38,730 nt of DNA from positions 1 to 38,730 of the forward strand of contig RBNJ01000157.1 of the NCBI GenBank assembly GCA_003990765.1. Reading direction: 5' to 3'. The DNA comes from Jimgerdemannia flammicorona (taxonomy: Eukaryota). The translations under genes were made by a program, and so were the position numbers. This document shows positions 2,950-38,730 of the stretch, in pieces; position 1 is the stretch's first letter, and every line of letters starts with the position of its first letter. Below the pieces are notes generated by a model. That model saw only the letters and a list, made by a program, of their open reading frames with translations. It did no database searches and was not told the DNA's origin.

Positions 2950-3955
2950 GCTTTCATGCCATTTGCTTGATTTATCAATCCCCTGCAATGTTGATCTCGA
3001 GCTCGCCATTGCTCACCCGATAGATCTCTCCAGTTTCATCACCAGTGTTGTCAAACTTCTAGTGCTTAATGATATCTCAACTGGCGACATTGCTTGCAAC
3101 ATCATTACCACCAGCATTATAAGTGACAATGGATTTGTTGAGGTGGACCTGTATAATATATGGCCATGTCCCAATGATGTCTATGCTACTGTCAGGTGTA
3201 AATATTAAATTCCTAATTTTACAGATAGTAATCAATTATCATCAATTTCTGTTAAAACAGTAGGGTAGATCTTAAACATATTTATTATAGCAGATCTTAT
3301 GACAAAGATTGCCTTTGATAATATTATATTTTTGTTAGCAATAGATTTAGATTCTTATAATTATAGTAAACTTCTTACAATGTATTTTAAAAAGGAGGCT
3401 AATATTTCCTCATACTACTTTTAGTAGATATGTAAGGATTTATTTTTATAAACTTTTTAAGAAATATTTTAATAAAACCTACTTAAGGATAATATATAAG
3501 CTGGTACAATTTCTATAATCAAAAAGAGTTCTTAAATCAAGGTAGTTTAATAAGTAGTATTTATTACTCTAAAATTTATTAATTATAAATTCTGTCTACT
3601 TATTAGTAGTCTTATTATATAATTAGAATATATAGTTTTTAGATTTATATTTATTATATTTTAAGTATATAATTATCTAGCAAATATAAACTATACTAAT
3701 GATATTTTATTTTAGTAAAGTAGTTCTTATTAGCTAACCAAATTATAATTATTTATTGTTATAAAGATTAATTTTCTGATTTTTTACTATTCAGTAAGTC
3801 TGTCTTTTTTTTTTTAACGGATTCAGTAAGTCTGTCTATATAGATATCAGCCAGTCAACTTAAGTATATAACTGGATTATTTATTGATTAGATAACTATT
3901 TAAATTTTATTTTAGCTAGCTAAAATCTAATTTTAGTAATTATATATTTATAATC
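2950..3955. mobile_element. Degenerate AT-rich transposon-like relic between the aminopeptidase and MET3
   Basis: Abrupt loss of CpG and excess TA, the same texture as the 21-38 kb TE block. A minus-strand coding-like frame is broken by TGA/TAG stops. Family not recognised; ends approximate. Confidence 0.5.
3789..3837 (-). repeat. 17-bp direct repeat (ATTCAGTAAGTCTGTCT) flanking a 15-bp insert with a poly(T) run; TSD-like micro-insertion
   Basis: Copies at 3789-3805 and 3821-3837. The insert reads CCGTT-A10 on the minus strand. Confidence 0.75.
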
Positions 3956-19432: not shown

Positions 19433-20599
19433 ATGACCCCAAACATCGAGTCCGAGCAAACCGTTACTCAGAGGAAGGTCGGCGAAAAGGTAGTATACGA
19501 GCGCGATTGGCAGCTCCCAGAGTTCACCATCAAAGAGATCAGAGACGCTATCCCCGCCCACTGCTTCAAGAGGGATACCCTGCGCTCTTTCGGCCATCTC
19601 GCCCACGACCTCGTCATCATCGCCATCCTCGCTTATGCCGCAACGTTCATCGATGCCCTCCCAGAAGCCTACCGGTATGTCCTTTGGCCCCTCTACTGGG
19701 TTGCGCAGGGCATAGTTTCCACCGGCATCTGGGTTATCGCCCATGAGTGCGGCCACCAAGCCTTCTCCCCCTCCAAATTTATCAACAACTCCGTTGGATG
19801 GGTCCTCCACTCTGCCCTCTTGGTTCCCTACCACTCGTGGCGCATCTCCCATTCCCGCCACCATAAGGCTACCGGACACTTGACCAAGGACCAAGTCTTC
19901 GTCCCGTCCACCCGCAGCAAATTAGATCTCCCACCTAAGGACCAGGACCCCGAAGACGGTATGCACCACAGCATGTTCGACGAGGCGCCCATCACGACCC
20001 TGTTAAAATTCGCGATCATGTTCTCTGGCGGCTGGCAGGCCTACCTCCTCGTCAACTCTACCGGCCAGGACTACGGCCGCTGGACCTCCCACTTCCACAC
20101 TTCTTCGCCGATTTTTGAACCACATCAATTTTGGGATGTGATCGTCTCCGTTGTTGGCATTATCGGCATGCTCTCAATCCTTGCCTACAGCTCCATCGTC
20201 TTTAGTCCCTTGGCCGTCGCGAAGTATTACATTATTCCTTACATGATGGTCAACTTCTGGTTGATCCTCATCACCTTTCTGCAGCACACCGACCCAGCCC
20301 TGCCGCACTACCGTGAGGCGGTCTGGAACTTCCAGCGCGGCGCAGCTCTGACGATTGATCGGTCGTACGGCTGGTTGCTGAACTACTTTCATCACCACAT
20401 CGCCGACACCCACGTGGCGCATCACTTCTTCTCGCAAATGCCGCATTACCACGCGGAGGAGGCGACGAGCCACATCAAGAAAGTTTTGGGCAAGGCGTAC
20501 GTCAACGACGACACGCCCATCCCAATCGCGCTGTGGAGGAGTTACACGCAGTGCAAGTTCGTGGAGGATGAAGGTGACGTCGTGTTCTTCCAGCACTAG
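19433..20599 (+). CDS. FAD2: Delta-12 (omega-6) fatty acid desaturase, single exon
   Basis: FTIKEIRDAIPAHCF N-terminus, His boxes HECGH, HSRHH and HVAHH, ITFLQHTD, and FVEDEGDVVFF C-terminus. Delta-12 versus delta-15 activity cannot be settled from sequence alone. Confidence 0.92.
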   Translation: MTPNIESEQTVTQRKVGEKVVYERDWQLPEFTIKEIRDAIPAHCFKRDTLRSFGHLAHDLVIIAILAYAATFIDALPEAYRYVLWPLYWVAQGIVSTGIWVIAHECGHQAFSPSKFINNSVGWVLHSALLVPYHSWRISHSRHHKATGHLTKDQVFVPSTRSKLDLPPKDQDPEDGMHHSMFDEAPITTLLKFAIMFSGGWQAYLLVNSTGQDYGRWTSHFHTSSPIFEPHQFWDVIVSVVGIIGMLSILAYSSIVFSPLAVAKYYIIPYMMVNFWLILITFLQHTDPALPHYREAVWNFQRGAALTIDRSYGWLLNYFHHHIADTHVAHHFFSQMPHYHAEEATSHIKKVLGKAYVNDDTPIPIALWRSYTQCKFVEDEGDVVFFQH

Positions 20600-20871
20600 A
20601 CTAAATAGATGGATGGCGGTTGTAGGGAACATGGCCTAAGTTGCTCGGCTGTTTTGGGGTCGAACAATGTTTCTTTTCTTTTACCTAAACAACGATCCGT
20701 TACCTAGCTCTAAGCATATATACACGAGATGTAACGGCAGATAGTTACTTGTGGATAATATTGAAAAATACACTGACGTAATCTGTCTTCGGCTAAAGAC
20801 GAATTTCCTAATTTGCATACCATTTTCTGAATGCCACTTTTCAAGGCGTCGTGATACATATATATATATAT

Positions 20872-21193
20872 TGTCACGTAGTGGTCGCTGAGTCCTTCAA
20901 ATATATCAGATTCTCTTCAAGGTGTATCTCTTAGACTAACTACAAGTTTGTTATAAGCAAGTTCTTATTGGAGTGCCTTCCCAAGGTCTTATAGTCCTCA
21001 AACTTCTTATCTTTAAACTGTCTTGTCATCTCTTAGATTGCTTGCATGGAATTGAGTATAAGTGAACTTGACTGACTTTATTTCAAAGGAAATAAGAGGG
21101 CTATTTATACAAAATATAATTCAATAGTTACTAAGATATAAGGCTAAATATAAATTCCAATAACCAAATAAAATACTGGAACACAGAAAACTT
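20872..21193 (-). mobile_element. 3' part of an LTR of the same family as the 22.8-31.6 kb gypsy, inverted and truncated
   Basis: Reverse complement matches about 24038-24396 (e.g. ACAGTTTAAAGATAAGAAGTTTGAGGACTATAAGACCTT and TTTCCTTTGAAATAAAGTCAGT). Ends ...CTACGTGACA next to a (TA)n run. Confidence 0.9.
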
Positions 21194-22508
21194 GTTTCAG
21201 ACATTCTTTACCACTCTACAGTATTTTGCCATCATTTTCAAGCAATGAAAAAGCTTTCCATCGACATTTGTAACCACATCATCCACTTACTGCAATCTGG
21301 TTTATCTACACACAAGATTGCCAAAGAAATCAATTTGAGTGCGATGACAGTAAACCACGTAAAAATGGTGTATTGCAACAATATTCCTTCATCAAAAGGT
21401 GGTTGTCCAGCTATGTTTTCAGCCTGGGATGAAGTATGGATCACCCACCAAGTTACAATTGGCAAAGCAGATAATGCCACCAGAGTTGTAAAAACCCTTC
21501 AAGAAAGTAGCAAAAAGGTGAGCCTTAGTATGGTAAAATGAATGCTCCAAAAGGCCAGCCTCAAAGTATACATGAAGCAAAAGAAACCACTTTTGCTACC
21601 TCACCACATAAAGGCACACTATGAATTTGCCATGAAATACAAGCATTGGATAGTTGCTGACTGGAAAATCATTGTGTTTTCTGATGAAATGAAGATTAAC
21701 TGTTTGGGCTCTAATAGACGTGAATGGATATAGCATAAATCGGGTGGTGGTGGGGAGCTTCAACCGAACCAGGTGACTGGAATGCTAAAATTCAGTAGCA
21801 GATTGTTAATGCTTTGGGAATGTATGATATATAAGGGCATTGGATATATATGCCAAATTGAAGGCCAAATGAATGCTGAATTATATACTAGTATTCTTGG
21901 TAATGAATTGCTTCGAATAATCAAGTATTACAAACTTAATCAAAAAAAGATCACCTTCTAACAGGATAATGATTCCAAACACACGTCCAAAATAGTGCGT
22001 GAATAGTTCAAAAACAACTCTATCCACATATTAGACTGGCCAGTGCAATCGCCAGACTTCAACCCCATCGAACATTTATAGTGTAAACTTAAAAAATGGT
22101 TGAATACATATGACGAACCACCTGAAGGAATACTGGAATTATAGGAGTGTGTATAGCATATATGGAATAATATTCCTAAAGATATTTATATTAAATTAAT
22201 TAAAAGTATGCCCAGGTACATTGCAGCAGTATATAAAGCCAAAGGTAGATATGTTAAATACTAAATAAAAATAAATAAGAGGTTTGGATGGCCAAGAGGG
22301 TCAAAACTATAACAATGGTAATATAACTTAAAATGGTTATATTAATGTCTATATTTATCCAAATAAAATAAAAAATATACCATTTAAAAGCTGAGATACT
22401 ATATTATTAATGGTAAAAATTTGGATTTTATTATATTTATATTGAAGCTATAATATAATTATATATAAAAAATAACTAAACATTGTTACAGTTTTGGCTG
22501 TCACTGTA
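21194..22508 (+). mobile_element. Tc1/mariner DNA transposon (DD34E); right TIR and TA present, left end lost
   Basis: Right end ...GTTACAGTTTTGGCTGTCACTG|TA at 22506-22508 (CAGT-type TIR). Contains the transposase at 21245-22264. Confidence 0.9.
21245..22264 (+). pseudogene. Tc1-like transposase pseudogene, 340 codons in one frame with several nonsense codons
   Basis: HTH N-terminus, KKPLL, IVFSDE, QDNDSKHTS, WPVQSPDFNPIEHL and SMPR..AV.KAKG. There are 34 residues between the second D and E. No frameshift; the stops are explicable by C>T or G>A changes. Confidence 0.93.
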
Positions 22509-22802
22509 TCTCTTTCTCCACTATCATACTGATCACAAGGTTTTGATAGACAATCTTCTGAGTTTCTTTTCTATAACTTATTTTCTCTCTATTTTAGATT
22601 GGTTTGTTATATCTATTGCAGAACAGTAAAAAGGAGGCAATAGTAATAAGTTGCCCCTTTATCAGTATCAAATTGATACTTTCTCTACTTTTTTATAGTT
22701 TCTGATACCTCTGGCTATATTTGAAGTATACTTATTTTGATATAACACTTTTTTTCTTTTACTATCATTAATAAGATATTATTATAGTATATTATAAACT
22801 AT
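22509..22802. repeat. Repeat X, left piece (host element split by the gypsy insertion)
   Basis: Aligns with about 37589-37880 and continues at 31644 after the gypsy element. Confidence 0.8.
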
Positions 22803-24396
22803 TATAATAGAGATCTTGGAATGGTGACATTATTACAGAAAACAGTCTTTCCTTATAAGCTACCAGATTAGAGCATAAGAAGATCATATGGTATGACTTA
22901 CTCAGACTACAAGATGAGCAATAATGACTAACTATGAGTCATAATGATCACAAGATAGATATCTCAAAGAATATAAAAGAAGGACCAGAAAACTACAGTA
23001 GTAGTAACTCTAATAAAAACTCACAAAAATCTAAAATAGTTCAAAAGACTCACTATAAATAAAATGTCTATTGCTCACCAAACTGTAAGGTCTAGGAACT
23101 ATCAAGGCTTCTCAGTCCAAGAAAGGATATTCCAAGATATCAGGAGAACTATAAGAACCCATACTAGAAGAATTCCTAGCCTCAACTTAGGCACTAGTGA
23201 TCCTTATCACTTTACTCTCTACTATTATAAAATAGAGACAAGGATCACTATTACTATTGAATATCTCTAGATGTAGCAGAAATATGAAATAAGAAATCTC
23301 CTCTACTAGAAATTCCCTCAGGTCAGTCTCTAAAAGATAAAATACTATCTCTATAGATATATATAAATTGAGAGTAGCTAAAAAGATTCATCAGATCTTT
23401 AGGTATATATATATCTTAGTCAATTCTCAACTTGAAGTATATCAGAGTCTCAGACTTTAAGGAATTATCAGCCTACTATATAGATATACTAGAAGCTATA
23501 GTGGCCACAGAAGCTCAATCTACTATTACTCTCAAAAGTGATGAGATAGAAGAGTTCTGGAATCCCATTCTCAAGAATAATCCAGATCAATTTCTGCAAG
23601 AATTAATCTCAGTATTTCAAGGCCCCAGTATTCATGTCAGACCCCCTCAAGATTCTATCTTTGTCTCCTACTTTATAGAGGAAAATATCATAGATTGAAG
23701 AGCCCCTGATCTCTTTTCTGCTGCTATTGAATATGATGATATCACTAGTGATAATATCATCTCACTAATTGACACATATGAAATAAATGAAACAGAAATA
23801 TTTGCTGACCATATTTTCTTCAAAGACATCCTGTCCCTAACCTCTAGCCTTAATGATAGTAATAAAGATAAAGTCTCCAGAATTCTGAACATTCTACTTT
23901 AATTTATTTATATAACTATTTGTTTGAACACTTGAATATTCTAGCATCCTGATCTTATATAACTGTCAGAAATTATTTCAGCATTCTGATCTTATATAAT
24001 CAATTATATAGATACTTAAATTTGTACTTACAACCTGAAGTTTTCTGTATTCAAATATCTTATTTGATTATTAGATTTTATATTTAGCTTTATATCTTAG
24101 CCATTATTGAATTACATTCTATATAAATACTCCTCTCATTTCCTTTGAAATAAAGTCAGTATTAAAATACTTAAGTATTTAAGTATCTAATTACTTAAGA
24201 GTACAAAAGTTCTAGTTCTCTACTCAATTCTATATAAGTAAATCCAAGAGACAATAGAACAGTTTAAAGATAAGAAGTTTGAGGACTATAAGACCTTAGA
24301 AAAGTACTCTAATAGAACTTGCTTATAAGAAATTTATAGTTGATCTAAGAGATATACTTTAATATATTTAGAGAACTTAGTACTTACTATGTGACA
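22803..24396 (+). repeat. 5' LTR (1594 bp)
   Basis: TATAAT(from TGTAAC)...GTGACA termini, colinear with 30074-31643. TATA box at about 24120-24129 and AATAAA at 24149-24154. Confidence 0.93.
23064..23902 (+). pseudogene. LTR-embedded ORF of unknown function, 5' LTR copy
   Basis: ATG at 23064 (MSIAHQTVRSRNYQGF...) to TAA at 23900-23902. Two small frameshifts relative to the 3' LTR copy. ORF-track pieces 23064-23270 and 23432-23698 are parts of it. Confidence 0.65.
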
Positions 24397-24449
24397 ACTT
24401 AGTATCCATTAGCTGATAATATTATTAAGATCTCTCACTTTCAAGCTGA

Positions 24450-27400
24450 ATAATGAATAACTACCTCAATAACTACTCTGACTATAAGAGTCACCTTCTG
24501 TAAGAATTTAAGATAAGATAGAAATATATCCTCCCATATTCTATAGATTTACTACTGAAGAGTTAATCTTGACCTTTATTAAAGACTTTAAATAATTTGC
24601 CACTATATAAGCTCTTAGTGTTGAAGCACAATTAGCTCTTCTACCTATCAGTCTCAGAGAACTTGCCAGAGATAAGTTCAATATAATCACCATTGCCAAC
24701 AATAGTATAGCCAAACTCACCAATATAAAGAACTTCCTCAGAACTATATACTATATTAAAGAGATCAAGTAAGCTCTTAAAGATCAACTCAATACTATCT
24801 GCCAAGGACTTAATGAAGACCCCAACTCATTTTACACTCAAATCTGCTACCAGATTGTCTTTGCTAACTATGATGACATCCTCAAGGAATAGATAGCTGA
24901 TTCAATCTTTCTAAAAAAAAGTCTACCATAAAATTACCCTAGCAATCTGATCTATTCCAGCTACTCTGACCCTTGACCAGAAAGTGGTCTTTGTACAAAG
25001 ATATTGGACTGCCAGACACTTTGTTAAATATTCAATAGAAAGGATAACTGGTATCAAGATAGAGCTATTAAAGCTAATCAATATTATACCCACTATAGCT
25101 CTTAACAGACAACTATCTCCACTTACTCCCAAGATGACCAAAGCCAATCTAGTAGAGAAACTCCCCCAGTAGTTTACCAAGATGACTGTACATCTTGGTA
25201 ATATTATTAGAGAAGTATGAAGTGCTAATAGGAGACTAGTACAGAAGTTTATAGCTACTATAGAGAAATATATCATTACATACTTCAAATATAGAGAAGA
25301 AGGCCACTATATAAAAAATTACATGACCAAAATAAGGCACAGAGTCCAATCAAGTAATACTACTAGAACTAGAGAATAAACTAATATAGTAGTCATTAAG
25401 GAGATTGGTAATACTGATAATGAAGAATACTATGATGAGTCTAAATTCTATCCTGTTACTGAAGATATCAGAACCTAGTCTAAGCCCTATAATAAGAAGG
25501 ACAATAGCAAGCCAGTTGGAAGACCAAAAAAGACCTCAACCATTACTATTCAAAGTAAGATCCAATCTGAGGAGATTGACCAAGATATAGAGTTAGATGA
25601 AGCTGCCTACCAAATTATTGAAAGCACTACTCCAGTCTCAGGAAAAAGTGAAAATAAGAAAGAATAGAAGCTGCATAAGACTAAGATCCATCAGTATGAT
25701 ATCTATAAAAACCTTAAGGAATAGAAGATCAATACTACTTTTGGACAACTAGCAGAAGTTCCTGCCTTCAGACAGCAGTTGAGAGCAGAACTTATAACCA
25801 CTGTCAAGAACTAACTGTATAAGATCATAGAAGCTCATAATGTATAAGAAGATGAATAAGAAGACTTAGGTAAAGAATTTGAAGATCAGCACAAGACCTC
25901 AGCCTATATGCAATATCAGATTTAAGATTATATCTTTAATGCTATCATTAATACTAGTGCTGAAGGATACCTTATAAGCAAAAAAGCAATTGACCACCTA
26001 GGCTGAGATATTGAAGAATTTACCAAAATAGTCTATATTACAGTAAATGGTATACAAGCTACCCCCCTAGATAAGATCTGAGAAGTTTCTATAAGATCAG
26101 AAGAGCTACCATTCTAGTAGATGTAATCATTATGAGTACTACTAACTATAATATACTCATTAGTAATCAATGGCTTTACAAGACCAAGACTATTGTTGAC
26201 CTTAATACCCAAAAGATACAGACCAACTATAGAGGAAGAAAGATATGAGTCTCTATCAATATTTACAAAAAGGTACTATCAGATATAGAAGAAGAAGATA
26301 AAGAGAATACAGAAGTCTTTATATACTCAGTATATAAGAATAAGAGCAAGACAACCAAGCTCACAGATGAGCAGTAGTATAACAAGATTATTGATAACTA
26401 TACTTCTCAAAGAAAATGCCCCCATAGTACTAGAATGTACTGCTCCAAATACCTAAATGACTACTGGTTCTGTACTAGTGAAGTTAGAAAAATCCATTAA
26501 TAAAGATATGAGTAAGAAGTAGCTGAAGTAAAAAAGAAAGTTAAAGAAGATGACCAGTCTCTAGAGCTTCAAGCTGATAGTAATAATGAGGAGGAATAAG
26601 AACCAGACATCACTCTCAAGGTTAAGAAGTTTTACCCCAAAGCTAAGATTCCAAAATACAAGACTGAAAAAGCTATAAAAATAGGCCTTACCAGCATCCA
26701 AGATGCTATCCTTAAACCACAAACCACCACTCTACTTGGTACTGAAATTGGAGTCAAGTTACCAGAAAACTATTCCAGAATTATCAAAATCAGAAGCAGT
26801 CTGGTCAAGAGCAAAATCTCAGTTAAAGGAAGAGTCATTGACCCTGATTACACTGGTGAGATCTTCCTTATAATCAGGAATCACAACTCCACCACTCCAT
26901 TCAAAGTCAAGAAATATGACAAGATTGGCCAGATACTAATCTATGAAGTTAAGAAGTTTAAGATCATTGAAGTCATTGAACTTATCAAGACTAAGAGAGA
27001 AGAACAAAGCTTTGAATTTACTGGAAGAGGAGCCTATGCTACTATCAAAATTACTGAACTCAAGTATAAGAAAGACAAGAACCAGAACAAGCACATATAT
27101 ATCATTGGAGAAAACTTTCTCCTAGAAGAACAACTTTTTAAGATCCTGTACCAGAATGAAGAAGTACTCACTACAGACTTCAGAGATATCCACAATCAAG
27201 AACCTAAGTACTACTATGAAGTTGATACTAGTGATATCAAGCCCATTTATCAGAAAGTCAGATCTATACCACCTGCTTACAGAGAATAGCTGTGAGCAGA
27301 ACTCAAGAAAATGGAAGAAGCTGGTATCATCAAGCAAGCTATTAGTCTCTGGGCTTCACCCATTATTCTTACTCCAAAGAAAGAAAGTAAGCCTGGAGAG

Positions 27401-29710
27401 TTTACTCTACAACTCTGTATTGATTATAGGAAGCTCAATGCAATTATCAAAAAGAATAGACAGCTCTTACCAAATATTCAAGAAATCCTTAATACTTTTA
27501 GAAGTGAAGCCAAATACTATACCACCTTAGATTTGTTCTCAGGCTTCTATCAGATCAGTCTCACTTAAGATATCAGTGAGAAATCAGCCTTTATTACATA
27601 TGATGCCACCTATGTCTATCTATAAATACCATTTAGAATATATAATACCCCAGTAAGTTTTCAGCAAATAATAAATAAAGTCTTCAAATGAAATTAAAAA
27701 ATGACTCTTGTCTATGTTGATAATATGATCATCTTCAGCAATACTATATGGGAATATATTAACTATATACAGCTAGCTCTCAAGAAGCTCAAAGAGTATG
27801 GCCTCTATATCAAGCTCAAAAAATATAAGTTTTCAGCTCAAGAAATTGTCTACTTAGGACATATCATCAACCAGACTGGAATTTATATAGACTCTATGAA
27901 GATTGAGGCTATTGTAGCCTATCTAAGATTTAGAACAACTACAGAAGTCTATGTCTTTCTTAGACTGGCCTCCTATTATAGAAGATTCATCAAAGAATAC
28001 TTCAATATTACAGCATCTATCTATAAGCTACTGAAGAAGAAGATCAAGTTTGAATGGACTAAGGAATGTCAAGAAATCTTTAATGAACTCAAGACTAAGT
28101 TGATCTAAATACCTATTCTCAGAAGACTAGATTGGAATCTAGAGTTCATCCTACAGACAGATGCAAGTACTATAGAACTTAGAGTAGTGTTAGCTTAGAA
28201 GAAAGATAGATATGAATATGTCATCTCCTATATATATAAGCTAAGATACCTATAGAGCAAAATAGAACTATAAGTTATATAAGCTTGAATGCTTAGCAGT
28301 AGTCTGGGCAGTAGACAAGTTTCACTACTACTTAGCTGGAAAATACTTTACTATTCAAATAGAGTATTCTGCTCTTACCTGGCTATTTCATACTCTGAAC
28401 CCCAAAGAAATATATATCAGATAGATTTACAGACTGCAAGAGTATCAACACCATCTAAAAAGAACTAATACCAATACTGATATACTCTTAAGGATACTCT
28501 GAAATACCCCCATTAAGACTATTCAACATGAATAAGGAGCTATGTATACTATAGATTAATTAGCTATCTTAAGTAGTGGAAGATATCTAATTACCTTAAA
28601 CCCTAAACTATTACTATTATTAACTAAACTTAGAAACAATTTGAACTAGATAACACCATACTCAGAAAAGGAGAAAAGCTCATTATACCTGAATATAAGA
28701 AGTATTAAGTAATGAAGGAAGTATATGAACAAAGATATTTAAAAGGAATCAATATATACAATAAGGCAAAAAGAATCATGTAATGGTCTAAGATAGAAGA
28801 AAACCTATACCAATTTATCAAAAAGTGTAACAAGTACTAAAAACAGAAATAAGATCAGTAAGACCAGATACCCAGATTATCAAGAATCAAACCTATTTTC
28901 TTCTACCACATTATAATAGATATTATTGGATCACTACTAGTAACTCTATTAGAAAACTGCTATATTATAGTTATTGTAGATCTCTTTACTAAATAAATAG
29001 AAGTAGGAGTATTACAAAAAGCTAATACTCTCTCTATTACTAACTTCCTGTACCAAGAAATCATCTGCTACTATAAGACACCAAATTACTACAGACTGTA
29101 GTACAGAATTTGTCAACAGATTCCATAAGATAATATATCAGAAATATAAGATTTAGTATATCAAAACTACTATATATCACTCTCAAGAAAATAGACAGAT
29201 AGAAAGAACAAATAAGACCCTTAAGAACATCCTGGCCAAGATCTCAGACACATATGAGAATTGAGATAATTATCTCTCAACTACTCTCTTCATCCAATAA
29301 GATATATAGTTACAGAGTATACACTTTACCCTATCTTCAGAGAAGAAAATTCTGATAGAATCTTAGCCACAAATCAAGACCTACTTAGTAATAAATTGAC
29401 TCAGAAATCTGAAAACTATACCAAATCAGAAAAAAGGTAGAATATTATATCACTAAGTCACAAGTGTTAATAAAAAAGAATGCAGAAAAGAATCATAAAA
29501 CTTTAGAACCCATTCAAATTGGAGAAAAGGTCCTACTTTATCAAAATATAATAGAAGTCTTATAGTTATAAAAACTGAAGCCCAAATAGGAAAGACTCTT
29601 TTATATACAAGATATCAAAAGAACTACCTTCTGGTTTAGAAAACTCTCAAACCATACTACTTACTATAGTATATAGGAATAGACTCAAGAAATACCATGA
29701 ATCTATATAA
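24450..29710 (+). pseudogene. gag-pol pseudogene
   Basis: Gag QGLNEDPNSFY; zinc knuckle YFKYREEGHYIKNY (from CxxCx4Hx4C) at about 25280; protease AIINTSA (from DTGA) at 25941; RT WASPIILTPKK, LCIDYRKLN, LDLFSGFYQI, YVDN (from YVDD); RNase H ILQTDAS; integrase IVDLFTK, YHSQENRQIERTN, IGEKVLLY and RNRLKKY. Ends approximate. Confidence 0.92.
26600..27025 (+). pseudogene. Trimeric dUTPase domain within pol, between protease and RT
   Basis: LKVKKFYPKAKIPKY, IRSSL (motif II), RVIDPDYTGEI (III), YDKIGQIL (IV) and TKREEQSFEFTG (motif V, from RGxxGFGSTG). Stop-free and in frame with RT (27311-26600 = 711). Missed by the ORF track. Confidence 0.92.
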
Positions 29711-30073
29711 GAGAAGTAAAATATAATGACCATCTATAAAGCTAGTCTATAAATCATAACAGCATATTCTATAACTAGTAGATAATCTGTCAGAACTATT
29801 CTCTAAGAGATATGATACTAGCAACTACTCATTTATAAGACTTTCAAAGCCAGAGGAGTTCAAACCATCAACTAATTAGTCAAGATCAGAATCAGGCCCT
29901 TGTTCTATATAAAGAGAGCTACTCTTCACCATTATGCCAAAATATATAAGGAAGATACTAGTTCATAAATACCACTTTTTGACCCTCTGCCAGAGGTTAT
30001 GGGATCAGAAAATTTTTCAGACTGAATCAATAAATAAGAACATTCAAGAGAAGATTCTTATTTAGAAGAAAGA

Positions 30074-31643
30074 TGTAACAGTAATCTCAGAATGGTGACA
30101 TTATCACAGAAGACAGCCTTTCTTATAAGTCACTAGATCAGAGTATAAGAAGATTATATAGCATAACTTACTCAGACTACAAGATGAGTAATAATAACCA
30201 ATTATGAGTTATGATAACTATAAGATAGATATCTTAAGAAATATAAAAGAAGGACCAAAAAACCATAGTAGTAGTAACTCCAATAAAGACTTACAAAAAC
30301 CTAAAATAGTTCAAAAGACTCACTATAAACAAAATATCTATTACTTACTAAACTGCAAGATTCAGGAATTACCAAGGCTTCTTAGTCTAAGAAAGGATAT
30401 TCCAAGATATCAAGAGAGCTATAAGAACTTGTACTAGAAGGATCTCTAGCCTCAACTTGGGCACTGGTAACTCTTACTACTTTATCCTCTACTGCTATGA
30501 AATGGAGATAAAAATTACTACTACTACTGAATGCCTCTGGATATAGCAGAAATACAAAATAGGAAATCTCCTCTACTAGAAATTTCCTCAGACCAGTCTC
30601 TAAGAGATATAAGATACCACCTCTATAGATATATATAAATTGAGAGTAGCCAAAAAGATCTATCAGATCTTCAGGTATATACCTTAGTCAATTCCCAACT
30701 TAGAGTATACCAGAGTCTCAGACTTTAAGAAATTGTCAGCCTGCTGTATAGATACACTAGAAGCTATGGTGGTCACAAAAAGTATCACTCTCAAAAGTGA
30801 TGAGATAGAAGAGTTCTGGAATCTTATTCTTGAGGACAATTCAGATCAATTTCTATAAGGATTAATCTCAGTATTCCAAGGCCCCAGTATTCAGATCAGA
30901 CCCTCTCAAGATCTCACCTTTGTCTTCTATTTTGTAGAGGAAAATATCATAGATTGGAGAGCTCTTGATCTCCTTTCTACTACTATTAAATATGATGATG
31001 TTATTAGTGATAATGTCATTTCACTAATTAATATATATGAAATGAATGAAACAGAAATATTTGCTGACCTTATTTTCTTTGAAGACATCCTATCTCCAAT
31101 CTTTAGTCTTGATGATAGCAATGAAAATGAAGTCTCCAGAATTCTGAACATTTTACTCTAATTTGTTTATATAGCTATTTATTTGAACACTTGAATATTC
31201 TAGTATTCTGATCTTATATAACTATTAGAAATTATTCCAGCATTCTGATCTTATGCAACTAATTATATAGATACTTAAATTTATACTTACAATCTGAAGT
31301 TTCTTGTATTCAAATATCTTATTTGATTATTGAATTTTATATTTTAGCAATTATTGAATTATATTCTATATAAATATCCCTCTCATTTCCTTTGAAATAA
31401 AGTTAGTATTAAAATACTCAAACATTTAAGTATCTAACTACTCAAGAGTAGCCCTCTACTCAATTTCATACAAGTAAATTTAAGAGATAATAGAATAGTT
31501 TAAAGATAAGAAGTTTGAGAACTATAAGATCTTAGAAAGATACTCTAATAGAACTTACTTATAAGAAACTTATAGTTAATCTAAAAGATATATCTTGAAG
31601 AGAATCTGACATACTTGGAGAACTTAGTACTCACTATATGATA
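30074..31643 (+). repeat. 3' LTR (1570 bp)
   Basis: Starts TGTAACA directly after the PPT, ends ATGATA (from GTGACA), followed by the TSD CTAT. Confidence 0.93.
30334..31161 (+). pseudogene. LTR-embedded ORF of unknown function, 3' LTR copy (276 codons, single frame)
   Basis: ATA (from ATG) at 30334 to TAA at 31159-31161 with no frameshift. Internal stops are TAA/TAG only, and several are CAA in the other LTR. Confidence 0.7.
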
Positions 31644-32150
31644 CTATATAGGAAGTCAGTCAATCTTTAGTATCAAGTACTAGTATAGATTATCTGCAGG
31701 TTGTCAGTACCTATAATAGAGCTCTCTAAACTTTGGCAAGCTTCTCAGTAAGCATAGTTCTGATATAGATAATTGTTTTTCAGATAGTATTAGAATAAAA
31801 GAGAAGGTAGCTATCACAGATAGGAAGAAGAGTAATAATAGTGAGCTAGTCAGATATTAGGCTGAGGGTAGTCATTAGAGTTAGAATAGGTATTATCTCA
31901 GTAAGGCCCTTTGATTGGCTGGCAGATAGTGGGGTAGTATTGTAGCTAATATTTTTGCTATATTTAATTAGAACTAGAAGCTGACATAGTAATATAATTG
32001 AGGTCCACAGGTTTGAGAAGTGAGACCTTCCTTATTTAGCAGTACCTGACTAGAACTAAGAGCTGATATAATAATATAATTAAGATCTATAAACTCAAAA
32101 AGTAGAATTGGAGTCTTTTTAGATCTTAGTCTATATATCAGTCTTTTTGA
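31644..32150. repeat. Repeat X, right piece
   Basis: Aligns with about 37877-38362 and includes the same ~80-bp internal tandem duplication. Confidence 0.8.
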
Positions 32151-32449
32151 GGAGATCTTATACATATATATAGTATACAGTACTTATACTCAATCTTTTG
32201 ATTATAACTTTATATTATATATAATAAAAATAAAATAAAAATTATAAATTGATATAAAATTTCATTAAGTTTAATCAAATAGAGAGTTTTTTTTTATCAT
32301 CATTTTTTATATTTGCATTAAGATTAGTCATAATTTCAGCCTTAAATCTAAAGCTGAAAAGTTAAAATTTAGTATTAATTATAAGTCAGTCTTAAGCAAA
32401 ATTTAACTTTAAAAATAAGTCAGTCTAAAGTAAAATTCAATACTATCAC

Positions 32450-33356
32450 TCTGATACTCTGGCAAAATAGAACTAATTACCAAGAGATCAAACTTATCTC
32501 TATTATCCAAATAAAGAGACTATCTTATAAAAAGAGAAATATCTACTATATCTATATAGTAGAAGAGATAGTAAAAGCTTCAACTAGCTTAGTCCCATCA
32601 GAAGCTCAGAAACTCTTTAAGAAATTCTAAGATATTTTCCAGAAATCTACAGATATTTTACTCAAGCATCAAATTTAACATAAGATTGATCTTATTCTAA
32701 GAGCAAAACTCTCATATGGTCTAGTCTAAGCTCAAAGTCCTTTAGATCTTTAAAATTAAGGTATTCTTTTTGCTAGATTTATGAAATAGATATTACCAGA
32801 TTCTTATTGATGAGAAGAATATAGAGAAAACAGTCTTCAGAATATAGTTTAGATACTACCAATTCTAAGTTATATCTTTTGATCTAATCAATACTCCTGT
32901 AATCTTATATCTCTTATTCTGTAATATGATTTAGTCAAATTTAACTTTAAATTTTTAAATTTTTTTTTTTGACTTGATATTTATTATAAAATTATAAATA
33001 TATATATATGAAATAAGTTAGAAAAGTTGAAAAAAATAATTGAATTTTTTTATTTATAATTTAATTTTTATTTTTATTTTTATAATATTTTTATATTAGT
33101 TTTTTTTTTTTTTTTTTTATAGCCAAATTTGGCTGTATTGTATAAGGGATATATCTTAGTATATATTGATGATATTATAATTTATAGTGAAATAGTTAAG
33201 TTGTATTATACTTATCTATAAAATATACTAATTTTACTATAAGAACACTAGTTCTATATCAAGATGAGCAAGTGTAAATTCTACTAAGACCAGATTAAAT
33301 ATCTAAGATATATCATCTCAGCTGATGGTATCAATATAGATCTCTGAAAGATATTA
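32450..33356 (+). mobile_element. Relic reverse transcriptase of a second Ty3/gypsy family, internally deleted and interrupted
   Basis: F*DIF..HKIDLI.RAK..YG, LDL*NRYYQILIDEKNIEKTVFR, VISFDLINTP (from MSFGLTNAP), LVYIDDIIIYS, KMSKCKF and YLRYIISADGI. Confidence 0.85.
32906..33153. mobile_element. MITE-like insertion with degenerate terminal inverted repeats inside the RT relic
   Basis: TATATCTCTTAT...AGTCAAATTTAACT on the left versus AGCCAAATTTGGCT...ATAAGGGATATA on the right. AT-rich non-coding core that splits the RT motifs. Confidence 0.55.
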
Positions 33357-33359
33357 GTT

Positions 33360-36300
33360 CTATAGGATATTTTTATCTCTACTATTCTTAAGCTTCTTTA
33401 ATAATAACTTAGCAATATATAATCCAATTTTAATGATCTTAATATCATTAGAAAGGCCTTATTAAGGGCTTTCAAATGATTAAATTTAGATGATTATTTA
33501 TCAAATTATTGATATAAACATTTAATTGTCTAATTTGGAAATTAAAATAATGATTGATTCAAATCAATCTGAATCCAATTTAGATTAAATTGACTCATTA
33601 AGAGTACTATATATCATTATTAATATATTATAGTATATTTATTTATTTATATTTCTTTATCTTTTATATAGAGACAAAGAATTGCATATATAATAAAGAT
33701 ATGTTGAATATATGTCAGGTAGAATACAAATTATCTTAATATTGAATTTCTGTAAAACCCATTAAGCTAGTAGTAAGTTTCACTCAATAATTTTAATTTT
33801 GATAGCTTATTCAATTTGAACTAATATAATCTCTATTACCTAAAGAAATATAACTATTTCATTTATATTATAATAATTATATAAAGTATATATCCAGTTT
33901 ATACTTATTTGAACTAGAAATACTATTGTGGTAATTTATCAGATATACTTTTTACCAAAGTCAATAAGTATAATTATATCTATATATATAATCCTTTGCT
34001 TTACTCTATATTCAAGGGCCAATTTAAGAGTAATTTATATAATATAAGTTATACAAAGTAATATTTTTATAGTACTTATTCTTTTTAAAGAGATGGATAT
34101 CAGTATTAGTATTATTATATAACTCCAAAATGAGATATTTGATAGTTGTATATTTGGAGCAGATAGAGTATTGAGTTTGATAGTTTAACTATTATATAGT
34201 ATAATTAGCTCAAATGATATATATTATACTTCTAAAGATCTTTATACAAAACCTTACAAACTATATACTGATAATATTAAAGAATCTTCTTTTTAAATAA
34301 ATATATTTGTAGATTATAACAATAAGTAATTTTTATTTAAAGTTGATAGAAATCAGCTAAATATACTAATAAGTAGCTAATTTATATAAGCTAATAAATA
34401 GCTTATTTCTACTAATTTTTACCATTAATTATATTTATTTGGATAAGATGATGAAGATTGAAATTTAAAATTATCATTTAGAAGTATGTATTTGAACTAT
34501 AATATTATTATTTATATTTCTCATTAAGCTTTCAAAACTTAGAGAGAACTTAATTATTTATATATATACTATTATTTATATTTTTTCAGAAATTAGAGAA
34601 AACTTAATTATTTAAAACTATATAAGCTATCAATTATTTATATGAAGTTTATTTTAATAAATATAATATATAAATATACTTATGATCTTCTTCATTTAGA
34701 TATATCTCTTTACTATTTTCAAACTTCTCTTATTTCTTCATTATAGTAGTCTAGATAATATTTAGTTACTGATATATTTCTGGTAAGCTAACTATACTAA
34801 TTATCCTGAGAATATTATTTATTGGGATTTCTATAACAATTCCTCAAATTTGATTTTAGTGATGACTATATAAATTTAATATATATAATTAGATTCTATA
34901 ATATATAAGTAAAAAATACTCTCATTATGTAAACTTACTAAATACTAATATTCTCTAATCTAGTATCTTCAATTGGTACAATTGAATCAAACTAAATAAT
35001 ATCTTTGATCTGTAATATAGTCTGTAATTTGAATGTATGAAGACTAGTCAAATAATCTCTTCAAATATATATTAGTACAGATTTTATTGACTATATAGTT
35101 CTTAAACTTTGTTTATTGCATAATATTGAAGTTGAAAGTTTTGTTGACTAGATCTCCTAGAAGACTAAACTTGGTACTATGTTGTTTATAGATAAGAAAT
35201 ATCTTATCAGAATTAAATATTAATTATTTATACTGGTGGTCTTTATTAAGGTTATAAATATTCCAAAGAACAGAAGTGAGCTCAGAAATAAGACCAGTCT
35301 TAATAGCATTAAGAACTTGTCTCCTTATATTGCTTAGCCAATAGATTATCTATAAATAAAAGATAATTAGAAAAAATCAAATATATATAAAAAAGAGAAA
35401 TATATATAAATATAAATATACTTTTAAATATTTCACAGTTTAATCCTTAGTAATTAATATATTGATATTAAAATCCATATTGTTAGATATTTTTTTCTAT
35501 TGGGCTATATATTGATAATAACTATATATCTAAGTAACTTAAGCTTAGTAGTATATTTTTGATCAAAATATATATCTTTGGTTTCATCTTATATTTTTCA
35601 AGAAGTTTCAAATAGCAGAGTATTGTAGGAGAATTTTGAGCTTGAATAATAATAGATGATATTAGATAGAGAGAACTTCAGTAGAGAAGATATTGGTAGA
35701 AGAGAGATAAAATGATGATTGATAGATAATTTGACTTATACATTATATAGACAAGTATGAGAGAGGTAGAAAAGAAGAAAAGAGATAATGAGAGAAAGTA
35801 AGAAGAGTGGGAGAGATATGTTAAAAGACTGTACTTTTATATTATTAATAAGAATAAAAATTGCTTATACATATAATAACTAGCATATATTGACTAGCCC
35901 ATATATTAGCCAGCCTATTAATAAGAGTATATATTGGCCAGCTTATCAACAAGAGCATAATATATTAATTAGTCCATCAATAAGAGTATATATTAGCTAG
36001 TATATATATTAACTAGCCTATTAATAAGAGCATATATTAGCTGATCTATTAATAAGAGTATAATACATTGGCTAGTCTATTAATGAGAGTATATATTGAC
36101 CAGTATATATTAATAAGCTTAGCATATATAATCAGTCACCACTAATATATATTGATAAATATATTGGTTAATATATACTAATTATTATACAAGTAATTCT
36201 CATTAATAATATATAATATATACTTATTAACTAGTATATATTAGATAGTATTATATATTGATTTAGTATATATTAATAAGCTTTCAGTATATATAACATA

Positions 36301-37300
36301 CATATATACTAAGTCTCTTAAGCTTAAATTATATTATTAATCAATTATATTGAACTTTTTGATAGATCTCAAGCTTCTTAAACTATTATAAATTATTATC
36401 TAAAGTAGTAATAATTAGAAATTAGCATATTTCAATCTTTTAAGGAGTATTTATATATATTCTTGCTAAATTCTATAGATTTTTCTATATAATGAACTTA
36501 TAAAGATATTATGATATAAAAATATAACTGGGTTTTGTATATATATATATATTATCAGTAAATAGCATAATTACTATATAACTATTATTGATTTTTACTA
36601 AAATTTTTACTATTTATAAAAAATATTATTATAATATAATTCTTCTATAAATCTATATTAAACTATTAATATAACTATTATCTTAGGAGTATGAAAATGT
36701 TCTCAATATATTTATTTTCATTTATATGGATTTTTGATTATAAAAATAATAATAGAAGTCAGTATATCCCAGATATATATCTCAGTGAAAAATAATTCTA
36801 TATGACTCTTACTGAGATATCCTTAACCTACTTAGATATAAATTTTCTTAATATCTTAAGATCTATAAAACCTGCTCATTTTTATTGAGATTTTATATTT
36901 TTTCTTTAATATGAGGGGTGGGGTTCTGTATTTTTTCTATATAGAAGTGACTATTTTTCCTTATCAGCAAATTTGCTTACTTGATCTGATTGACTAGCTG
37001 CTCAACTTAATTGGCTAACTATAGTCAGCTTATTGATCTCTAATTTATTATATTCAGTCTATACTCAGGACTATATATTTCACTATAAAATAATCTTAAA
37101 TTAAAATAAGAATTTGATTCAATTTAAAGTTCAATTTAAATTTAGTATAATAAAAAATATTAAATTTAGATATATTATTTTATTAAGTTATTATATTCTA
37201 AATTAAGATAAATTTAAATTAAATTATATTTTTAATTTAATTTAAATTAACTCTAATTTAATTTAATTTAAATTGATTTAATTTATTTGAAAGTACTAGC
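33360..37300. mobile_element. Heavily decayed DNA-transposon debris; family not identified
   Basis: CpG-free and very AT-rich. Minus-strand coding-like and intron-like remnants at about 33650-35740, a tandem array, and two similar ends (...AGTACTA at about 33608 and 37298) preceded by AATTT/AAATT short repeats. Confidence 0.45.
35880..36300. repeat. Degenerate tandem array, unit about 28 bp (approx. AGYATATATTRRCYAGYCYATYAAYAAG)
   Basis: Repeated AAGAGYATATATT..C.AG motifs with C/T and G/A variants. Confidence 0.75.
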
Positions 37301-37586
37301 TAAAAATATTATTATAATATATAGATTTATTATCTAATTAATAATCATTATTATAAACCTATATAGTTAAATGAGAACTATTGAGTTATTCTTCTATATA
37401 TTAGAGTTCTCTATACAGAGAATAATCAGATAAAGACAATACTATATTTATCTCAAACTATATATACTATATATGTGATTATACTTTTATAGATATTATA
37501 ACTATCTCTATTATAGCCTAGATATATCTAAGATATTCTGCTGTCCAGTATATTAGAGCTTGACAGAGATATCAATAGTACTAATA

Positions 37587-38362
37587 TATCTCTTTCTCTG
37601 CTACTTTACTGGTTATAAGATTTGGTAGGTAACCTTTCAAGTCTCCTTTCTCCTATTATTACCTCCTTTATCTTAGATTAGTTTGTTATACTTATATAAG
37701 CATAGTGGAAGAAGGACAATAGTGAGGAGTTGTCTCTTTATCAGTATCAAATCAGTGTCTTCTTTACTTTTTCATAATTTCTAATACCTCTAGCTATATC
37801 TAGAGTATACTTATTTTAGTACAGCATCTTTGTTCTTTTGCTATTATCAATAAGATATCATCTCAGTATATCATGAGCTGCATAGGATATCAGCTAACCT
37901 TGGACATCAAGTGCTAGTATAGGTTATCTGCAGGTTATTCAGTATCTGTGATGGGGTTTCTAATAAGTATAGCACTAGTATAGGTGACTGTTTTTTTATA
38001 TATTATCAGAATGAGAGAGGAGATGGCTGTCATAGATAAGAGGAAAGATAATTATAATAAATCAGTAGGGTACTAGGCTGGGGACAGTTGTCAGAGTTGA
38101 GGCAAATATTATCTTAGTAGGGCTTTCTGATTGGCTGATAGAGAGTGGAGTGGTATAGGAGCTGGTATTCTGGCTATATTCAACTGAAACTGAGAGCTGA
38201 TATAGTAATATGATTGAGGTCTATAGGCTTAGAGAGTGAGATCTTTCTTATTTAGCAGTATCTGACTGGAATCAGGAGCTGATATAGCAATATAATCAAG
38301 GCCTGTAGGCTCAGAGAGTGAGAGTAGGGTCTTTTCTAGTCCTAGCCCATATATAAGTCCTT
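37587..38362. repeat. Repeat X, second uninterrupted copy (possibly part of an LTR; may extend further on both sides)
   Basis: Contiguous homolog of 22507-22802 plus 31648-32150. Differences are mostly transitions. Confidence 0.8.
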
Positions 38363-38730
38363 TACTTACTCACTTTGAATCTACTTTGCTTTCTGTTGAT
38401 TGATTGGGGGGTTTTTCTTTATCTCAGACTTTCTTTTGGAGTTTGGAGGGCTATTCTTTATTCAGTCCTAGCACTGCTAGATCTAATGCATAGATGTGCT
38501 CTTGTGTGTAGTCATGATGATCTAGCCCTGGTGAGTAGACAAGTCTGGTCTATGTCATGGGGGTCAGTATAGCTGGTGTTTGACAGGCATAGCTAGAGTG
38601 ATGGGACTGCCGAACAATTTAGTAATCTAGGTTAATAGGGAGATAATGTTTGGTGGGTGGTGGGGGAGGGTTTTGGCCTATATAGTCTAGGTTCCCTTCC
38701 AATAAAAATCTGCAGGACTATGAGTCTATA

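Follow-up and report, generated by a model that had tools for sequence, protein, structure and literature searches.

Does a fungus outside the Dikarya alter its transposons by a process resembling repeat-induced point mutation (RIP)? Mutagenesis of the RIP kind is regarded as belonging to the Ascomycota, with a TpCpG variant in relatives of the rusts and smuts, and the question is raised by a contig of Jimgerdemannia flammicorona, RBNJ01000157.1, whose 38,730 nucleotides (nt) we refer to as the window. Positions 1-20,600 carry ordinary genes (about 50% GC), whereas the right-hand 17.9 kb (20,871-38,730) is, judged from its sequence, a nest of dead transposons, including a retrotransposon with two long terminal repeats (LTRs; 22803-24396 and 30074-31643) and a Tc1/mariner transposase pseudogene (21245-22264). 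In this Endogonales genome the sister LTRs have acquired an excess of C-to-T changes (C>T, or G>A when the other strand is hit) of about 40 to 1, together with total erasure of CpG. The initial annotation offered two explanations, a repeat-targeted mutator or CpG plus non-CpG methylation followed by deamination, and this either/or stands after our analysis: the host is not an ascomycete, and the excess is not confined to CpG sites.

Sister LTRs are identical at insertion, and their present differences therefore record what happened afterwards. Over 1557 aligned sites the two copies differ by 218 substitutions, 213 of them transitions and only 5 transversions (P = 1e-30 against a 2:1 expectation), and by seven indel events in 50 columns. 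Divergence is 14.0% overall (transitions 13.7%, transversions 0.32%) and 16.4% in the first 300 columns; the estimate of one differing site in five and a single transversion, made over the first few hundred aligned bases, captured the strong divergence and its transitional nature, although the rate is one in six or seven and the full LTRs hold five transversions. The load is shared almost equally (105 inferred hits in one copy, 108 in the other), and on the plus strand it comprises 131 C>T and 82 G>A changes. As had been noticed in the initial annotation, the differing dinucleotides are very often CA/TA (60 pairs) or TG/TA (46 pairs); CA/TG pairs number five.

For the sequence context, the C- or G-bearing LTR copy was taken as unmutated and each site was classified by the base that follows the C. 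All CpG sites differ (10/10), followed by CpA (106/188) and CpC (60/114), which are not significantly different from each other, and then by CpT (35/252; CpA versus CpT, P = 3e-21). This order does not match the CpA preference that is canonical for RIP. Non-CpG cytosines account for 201 of the 211 classified transition differences, and the conversions per site per copy since insertion amount to about 0.39 at CpA, 0.36 at CpC and 0.07 at CpT, compared with 0.0016 for transversions. Cytosines outside CpG thus share in the excess. A process acting on CpG alone predicts CA/TG pairs, of which there are 5 against 106 CA/TA or TG/TA pairs, and explaining those 106 as direct double hits of CG to TA would, by simple arithmetic, require about 400 CpGs in a 1.6-kb LTR; the non-CpG hypermutation is therefore real. 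A preceding T lowers the rate at CpA (31/79 versus 75/109, P = 1e-4). A CHG-type context was considered and dropped, as CAG (21/51) is not above CAA (37/62).

The direction of change was read from alignment columns in which homologues agree and the window differs. In the Tc1 pseudogene, 52 of 87 such columns are explained by C>T/G>A alone, 6 by the reverse alone and 29 by neither; in the dUTPase-reverse transcriptase-RNase H region of the retrotransposon the corresponding numbers among 103 columns are 50, 7 and 46. The Tc1 frame spans 340 codons with seven internal stops in addition to the terminal one and has no frameshift relative to homologues of 338 amino acids, in agreement with the earlier description, and every stop at which the homologues have W, Q or R lies one C>T/G>A step away. 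The previously noted replacement of conserved Cys, His, Asp and Gly was likewise seen (C>Y, H>Y, D>N and G>S/R/E), along with R>C/H/Q/stop and W>stop. Copies of the same families in three public sequencing runs differ from the window mostly by transitions (1063 transitions and 92 transversions in one run, X3), and among the 40 best-supported of these differences the window has T or A against C or G in 36, the reverse in 3 and a transversion in 1. A 37-nt degenerate LTR pattern, used to look for further family copies, recovers all three copies in the window and no stretch in JGI metagenome contigs.

The erasure of CpG is equally sharp. Only 27 of the 1366 CpGs of the window lie at or after position 20600, and none falls within 22115-38610, the next being at 38611; the earlier statement that CpG is essentially absent from about 22.2 kb onward is borne out, as is the CpG richness of the adjacent genes (observed/expected ratio of 1.06 in 1-20600). 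Across this continuous CpG-free tract of 16,496 nt, which has 27.9% GC, 321.8 CpGs would be expected, while GpC is at its expected frequency (318; observed/expected ratio, 0.99). Zero CpGs against 322 expected cannot be chance. At the one boundary available, CpG counts stay at expectation up to about 20,850, some 20 nt before the first transposon edge, neighbouring intergenic DNA retains its CpGs, and the loss stops sharply at the edge. Loss is limited to repeats, in that the affected sequences have further copies in the window and in the public runs, and the genes adjacent to this boundary are spared.

Both a DNA transposon and retrotransposons are affected, and the elements form a series of stages in GC content and CpGs left: the Tc1 copy, which is a partly mutated stage (36%, 12 CpGs), the last 367 nt of the window (42%, 1), the second copy of a repeat that we call repeat X (36%, 0), the LTR element (30-32%, 0) and an AT-rich core (20%, 0). 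The core (32150-37580) has at least one badly decayed retroelement and shows the same decay at its furthest. A truncated, 322-nt fragment of the same LTR family at the left edge of the nest has been mutated less than the full-length LTRs (GC 32% versus 24%); in three-way counts, 23 sites are C or G in the fragment and T or A in the two LTRs, versus 8 with the opposite pattern. The surviving cytosines of the transposons stand mainly in CpT (53-60%, versus 23% in genes). At the window end (38364-38730, 367 nt) the GC content is 42% and yet a single CpG is left; here the loss of CpG seems to run ahead of that of other cytosines.

That the host lies outside the Dikarya is indicated by the delta-12 fatty-acid desaturase gene next to the nest. 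In a homology search, the open reading frame at 19433-20599 finds as its best match a J. flammicorona protein, with 99% identity over the full length, followed by proteins of Endogone sp. (81%) and Bifiguratus (69%) and by more distant matches in Mucorales (62-67%), Umbelopsis and Mortierellaceae (about 60-67% together). The ranking therefore identifies the organism as J. flammicorona or a very close relative, and on this protein evidence the host is assigned to the Endogonales, Mucoromycotina, which agrees with the initial suggestion of a non-Dikarya fungus.

The composition and arrangement of the mutations bear on their mechanism. Strand-clustered mutations, which the initial annotation suggested looking for, are absent from the LTRs (56 runs in each versus 51.5 +/- 4.8 expected), from Tc1 (33 versus 27.8 +/- 3.6) and from the polymerase (pol) region (27 versus 25.7 +/- 3.3). 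The absence of strand-coordinated runs fits independent single-site events. The RIP indices of the CpG-free tract lie on both sides of the thresholds, which are at least 0.89 for TpA/ApT and at most 1.03 for (CpA+TpG)/(ApC+GpT): the former is within range at 1.10 and the latter, the substrate index, out of range at 1.08, with a composite index of 0.01. Indices are probably borderline because the decay of CpG feeds the CpA+TpG pool, and this feeding may explain why composition-based surveys miss the process.

Canonical RIP of the Pezizomycotina, as in Neurospora crassa, is linked to RID and DIM-2 and resembles what we see in that C:G-to-T:A transitions are confined to repeats, nonsense codons are many and without frameshifts, AT content and TpA rise, and neighbouring genes are spared. 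It prefers CpA strongly over CpT, then CpG, then CpC in Neurospora, whereas here CpG comes first and is converted completely, CpA and CpC are on a par and CpT is hit least; the borderline indices, the lack of strand runs and the position of the taxon outside the Dikarya also set the two apart, as do, according to the parts of the literature available to us, the reported absence of RID and a genome with 77% repeats. The TpCpG hypermutation of the Pucciniomycotina (Horns et al. 2012, PMC3318451; Hood 2005) is, as reported, likewise a CpG-centred C>T change in the transposons of fungi that lack canonical RIP. In the window, by contrast, a 5' T is not required and is even disfavoured at CpA, and non-CpG cytosines are heavily hit, which is not so in the Pucciniomycotina. 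CpG decay similar to methylation induced premeiotically (MIP), described for Tuber melanosporum and the Agaricomycotina (Amselem et al. 2015, PMC4352252), shares the loss of CpG to TpG/CpA restricted to transposons and is attributed, in the available part of that paper, to DNMT1-class methylation followed by deamination. The loss of CpG described there differs from that in the window, which is total (0 of 322 expected) and goes together with conversion at CpA and CpC, about 0.4 per site and copy. In the Dim2-dependent mutation of Zymoseptoria tritici (Moeller et al. 2021, PMC8016269), as far as the excerpted report goes, methylated repeats acquire more C>T changes through a methyltransferase of the DNMT1 superfamily; this is the model for the mechanism that we favour, but it comes from a different phylum, and in the window CpG is the top target. 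Passive decay of 5-methylcytosine (5mC) at CpG predicts that transposons are depleted of CpG relative to genes, as found, and that the excess is limited to CpG; instead, nearly all classified differences (201/211) fall on non-CpG cytosines, and transversions number five. The pattern thus differs from each of the nearest described ones in combining complete CpG erasure with strong and equal conversion of CpA and CpC. It is a known kind of process in a new form, observed at one locus of a lineage reported to be without RIP.

The explanation that we rank first, at about even confidence, is a methylation-linked, enzyme-assisted deamination of cytosines aimed at transposon chromatin, with a RIP-like outcome. 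Transposon chromatin would carry cytosine methylation in all sequence contexts, placed at CpG by a DNMT1-type enzyme and elsewhere by a DIM-2-type member of the DNMT1 superfamily; methylated or enzyme-engaged cytosines would then be deaminated singly over many nuclear cycles, and the result, stop codons, AT enrichment and a gain of TpA, would look like that of RIP. Targeting would proceed through heterochromatin or a methylation mark, and not through a demonstrated pairing of duplicates. Methylation, enzyme, timing (mitotic or premeiotic) and mode of target recognition are the inferred parts of this model. The observed spectrum, its C>T/G>A polarity and its context order, in which all CpGs and then equal fractions of CpA and CpC exceed CpT, do not cleanly separate a repeat-targeted mutator from methylation plus deamination. 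The absence of strand clustering leans toward site-by-site, methylation-linked deamination, and an enzyme-driven process is suggested by how far C>T outnumbers transversions. According to a passage citing Bewick 2019, Mucoromycota outside the arbuscular mycorrhizal (AM) fungi have kept DNMT1 and DIM-2 and lost DNMT5 and RID, which fits the site-by-site reading, and a review, in the portion available, names DIM-2 activity as a promoter of C>T changes where repeats are methylated. The J. flammicorona genome is reported, in a source seen in excerpt, to measure about 240 Mb with more than 77% repeats, which speaks against efficient RIP.

Several points weigh against methylation-linked deamination of this kind. 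The C>T excess amounts to about 0.5 hits for each CpA site and 3 or more for each CpG site, versus 0.0016 transversions per site per copy, so that C>T exceeds transversions several hundred-fold at CpA and more at CpG. Rates of passive 5mC decay in mammals and plants are far below this excess; an active enzymatic step is therefore needed, and the line between this mechanism and RIP becomes blurred. The milder mutation of the 322-nt LTR fragment would also be predicted by the length threshold of a RIP-type process. A relative in the Mucorales has only 0.34% 5mC, according to the part of that report available.

Ranked second, and in our judgement unlikely though not negligible, is a true RIP-type defence, in which duplicates would be recognized by homology in a premeiotic (zygosporangial) phase and mutated in bursts by an enzyme of the DNMT family or another, here with a new preference of CpG over CpA and CpC, and of these over CpT. 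It would account for the extreme ratio of 213 transitions to 5 transversions, the equal loads of two linked LTRs, the coincidence of the mutation edge with the transposon boundary, the involvement of both element classes, a rate far above passive deamination and a TpA/ApT value of 1.10, above the threshold of 0.89, and the lesser mutation of the short LTR fragment suits a homology- and length-dependent process. Single rounds of RIP in Neurospora, however, give runs on one strand, and strand clustering is lacking here even in the lightly mutated Tc1; the substrate index (1.08, where at most 1.03 is expected) and the composite index (0.01) also count against it. So does a desaturase paralogue with about 86% nucleotide identity in contigs of the public runs, for which a matching protein, P0055, is recorded. 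The reported loss of RID in Mucoromycota outside the AM fungi is a further objection, and a genome of about 240 Mb with more than 77% repeats, as given in the excerpted source, would mean that any such defence does not contain the transposons.

A C>T-only spectrum could also be the work of a single-strand DNA deaminase similar to AID/APOBEC, or of editing of the retroelement complementary DNA (cDNA) during reverse transcription, and the retroelement does carry a dUTPase, an enzyme that lowers uracil incorporation. We nevertheless consider this improbable: the plus strand bears both C>T (131) and G>A (82) without runs, the DNA transposon Tc1 has the same polarity, and cDNA editing, which precedes integration, would leave the CpGs of the flanking repeat X in place, whereas those are erased. 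Tc1 and repeat X indicate instead that non-retro sequence went on mutating after insertion. Still less probable is that old transposons have simply aged in a neutral way, under nothing more than an AT-biased mutation pressure. The AT-rich core is indeed old and unalignable, and the two copies of repeat X differ by 210 transitions and 52 transversions; yet neutral ageing is contradicted by a transversion divergence of 0.32% beside a transition divergence of 13.7% in the sister LTRs (P = 1e-30) and by 0 CpGs where 322 are expected and GpC is normal, and adjacent intergenic DNA keeps its CpGs. For an artefact of assembly or sequencing, such as converted reads or a chimeric contig, we found no point in favour and give it almost no credence, as contigs of three independent public runs span the gene-transposon junction (20023-20891, 869 nt, one difference) and also contain numerous related copies that differ in the same manner.

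The layout of the nest was established by self-comparison (self-BLAST), alignment and Pfam scans. Adjoining the desaturase gene is the truncated LTR fragment (20871-21193, about 322 nt), an inverted 3' end on the minus strand recognized by self-BLAST, alignment and a shared degenerate motif; the sequence at its edge is TGTCACG..., and it retains two CpGs. The Tc1/mariner pseudogene on the plus strand (21245-22264) shows weak Pfam matches, below cut-off, to HTH_SB and HTH_Tnp_Tc3_2. The six homologues found (37-47% identity), of which four are full length (338 amino acids), carry PF01498 and PF13358; terminal inverted repeats of this element were looked for and not found.

The LTR retrotransposon (22803-31643) was inserted into repeat X, separating its left part (22507-22802, plus strand), identified by self-BLAST, from its right part (31644-32147, plus strand). 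A 4-bp target-site duplication, CTAT, flanks the element (22799-22802 and 31644-31647), ending the left part of repeat X and opening the right one. The uninterrupted second copy of repeat X (37587-38363, plus strand, found by self-BLAST; GC 35.6%, no CpG) has the empty site GAG-CTGC-ATAGG, so that both copies of the duplication read CTAT where the empty site has CTGC; two positions may thus have undergone parallel changes, once on each side of the element. A contig from the public runs joins window position 22801 to 31671, and copies of repeat X without the insertion therefore exist.

Both LTRs lie on the plus strand. The 5' LTR (22803-24396, 1594 nt; GC 29.9%, no CpG) now reads TATAATAG...GTGACA, and the 3' LTR (30074-31643, 1570 nt; GC 29.7%, no CpG) reads TGTAACAG...TATGATA. 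The internal region between them (24397-30073, plus strand; GC 32.3%, no CpG), assigned to the Ty3/gypsy type by its Pfam domains and by homologues with the same domain order, has numerous in-frame stops. It encodes on the plus strand a dUTPase (about 26639-27019, Pfam 3.1e-16), a reverse transcriptase (RVT_1, about 27407-27868, 8.2e-21) and an RNase H with one frameshift (about 28055-28445; RT_RNaseH_2, 1.1e-10; RT_RNaseH, 9.9e-13), and ends, just upstream of the 3' LTR, in the plus-strand polypurine tract AGAAGAAAGA (30064-30073). The hallmarks of Ty3/gypsy elements, namely paired LTRs bounded by TG..CA, a duplicated target site, a polypurine tract and an RNase H downstream of the reverse transcriptase, are present; no integrase was detected in the element by Pfam at E 0.001. 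The dUTPase lies just upstream of the reverse transcriptase, and intact relatives in metagenomes have the same domain order, with an aspartyl-protease domain ahead of the dUTPase. A dUTPase keeps uracil out of DNA, which makes it a curious cargo for an element subject to cytosine deamination.

The AT-rich core, delimited by composition (GC 20.4%, no CpG), contains a faint relic of a reverse transcriptase on the plus strand (about 33144-33311; RVT_1, E 5.5e-05, below the Pfam cut-off) in a scan of its plus-strand frames. Tandem-like direct repeats occupy 35882-36146 (three copies of 103 nt, 61-76% alike).

In the gene-bearing left part (1-20,600), the desaturase is accompanied by genes for an M1 aminopeptidase, an ATP sulfurylase with an APS-kinase domain and a polysaccharide (chitin) deacetylase. 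Between the aminopeptidase and ATP sulfurylase genes lies an AT-rich island of 600 nt (3200-3800, 14-23% GC) with 0 CpGs against about 5 expected, a TpA/ApT ratio of 1.22 and a composite RIP index of 0.56. It is weakly similar to the AT-rich core (60-64% across low-complexity sequence), and it may be a small transposon relic that has undergone the same decay within gene-rich DNA. A second desaturase-like sequence occurs at high depth in contigs of two of the public runs (X1 and X2, corresponding to window 20023-20601), and departs from the window by 80-82 differences and 4 gaps in 579 nt, or about 86% nucleotide identity; the J. flammicorona protein P0055 is 82% identical to the desaturase of the window. 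A diverged duplicate of the gene therefore persists intact.

How does this locus relate to the published view of RIP in fungi? A kingdom-wide screen (Badet and Croll 2025, PMC12543289) describes, in the portion available, ascomycetes as unique in their RIP-like signatures; its table lists J. flammicorona with 23 k-mers enriched in non-coding DNA and none in repeats over non-coding DNA, and labels it, like Endogone sp., 'no_rip'. Dallaire et al. 2021 (PMC8647823), citing Venice et al. 2020, state in the accessible text that RIP signatures were undetected in the Mucoromycotina. Our literature searches turned up no account of repeats hypermutated by C>T in the Endogonales or elsewhere in the Mucoromycotina. 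We regard it as a tentative proposal, slightly less probable again than a RIP-type defence in general, that Endogonales possess a true RIP-type mutator directed at repeats, whose enzyme is not RID and whose preference, CpG first and then CpA and CpC, is new. If so, targeted hypermutation would either be older than the divergence of Dikarya and Mucoromycota or have a separate origin, and the published 'no_rip' label would be a false negative. Such a false negative could arise because the conversion of CpG to TpG/CpA refills the CpA+TpG pool that the indices count, or because, at 77% repeats, non-coding DNA and repeats almost coincide.

If the pattern of this locus is general, composition indices and k-mer screens can miss processes of this kind, and the decay would explain the AT-rich, hard-to-annotate repeat compartments of such genomes, of 100-240 Mb. 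It would point to a cytosine-modifying enzyme outside the RID family and to a mutational genome defence in early-diverging fungi.

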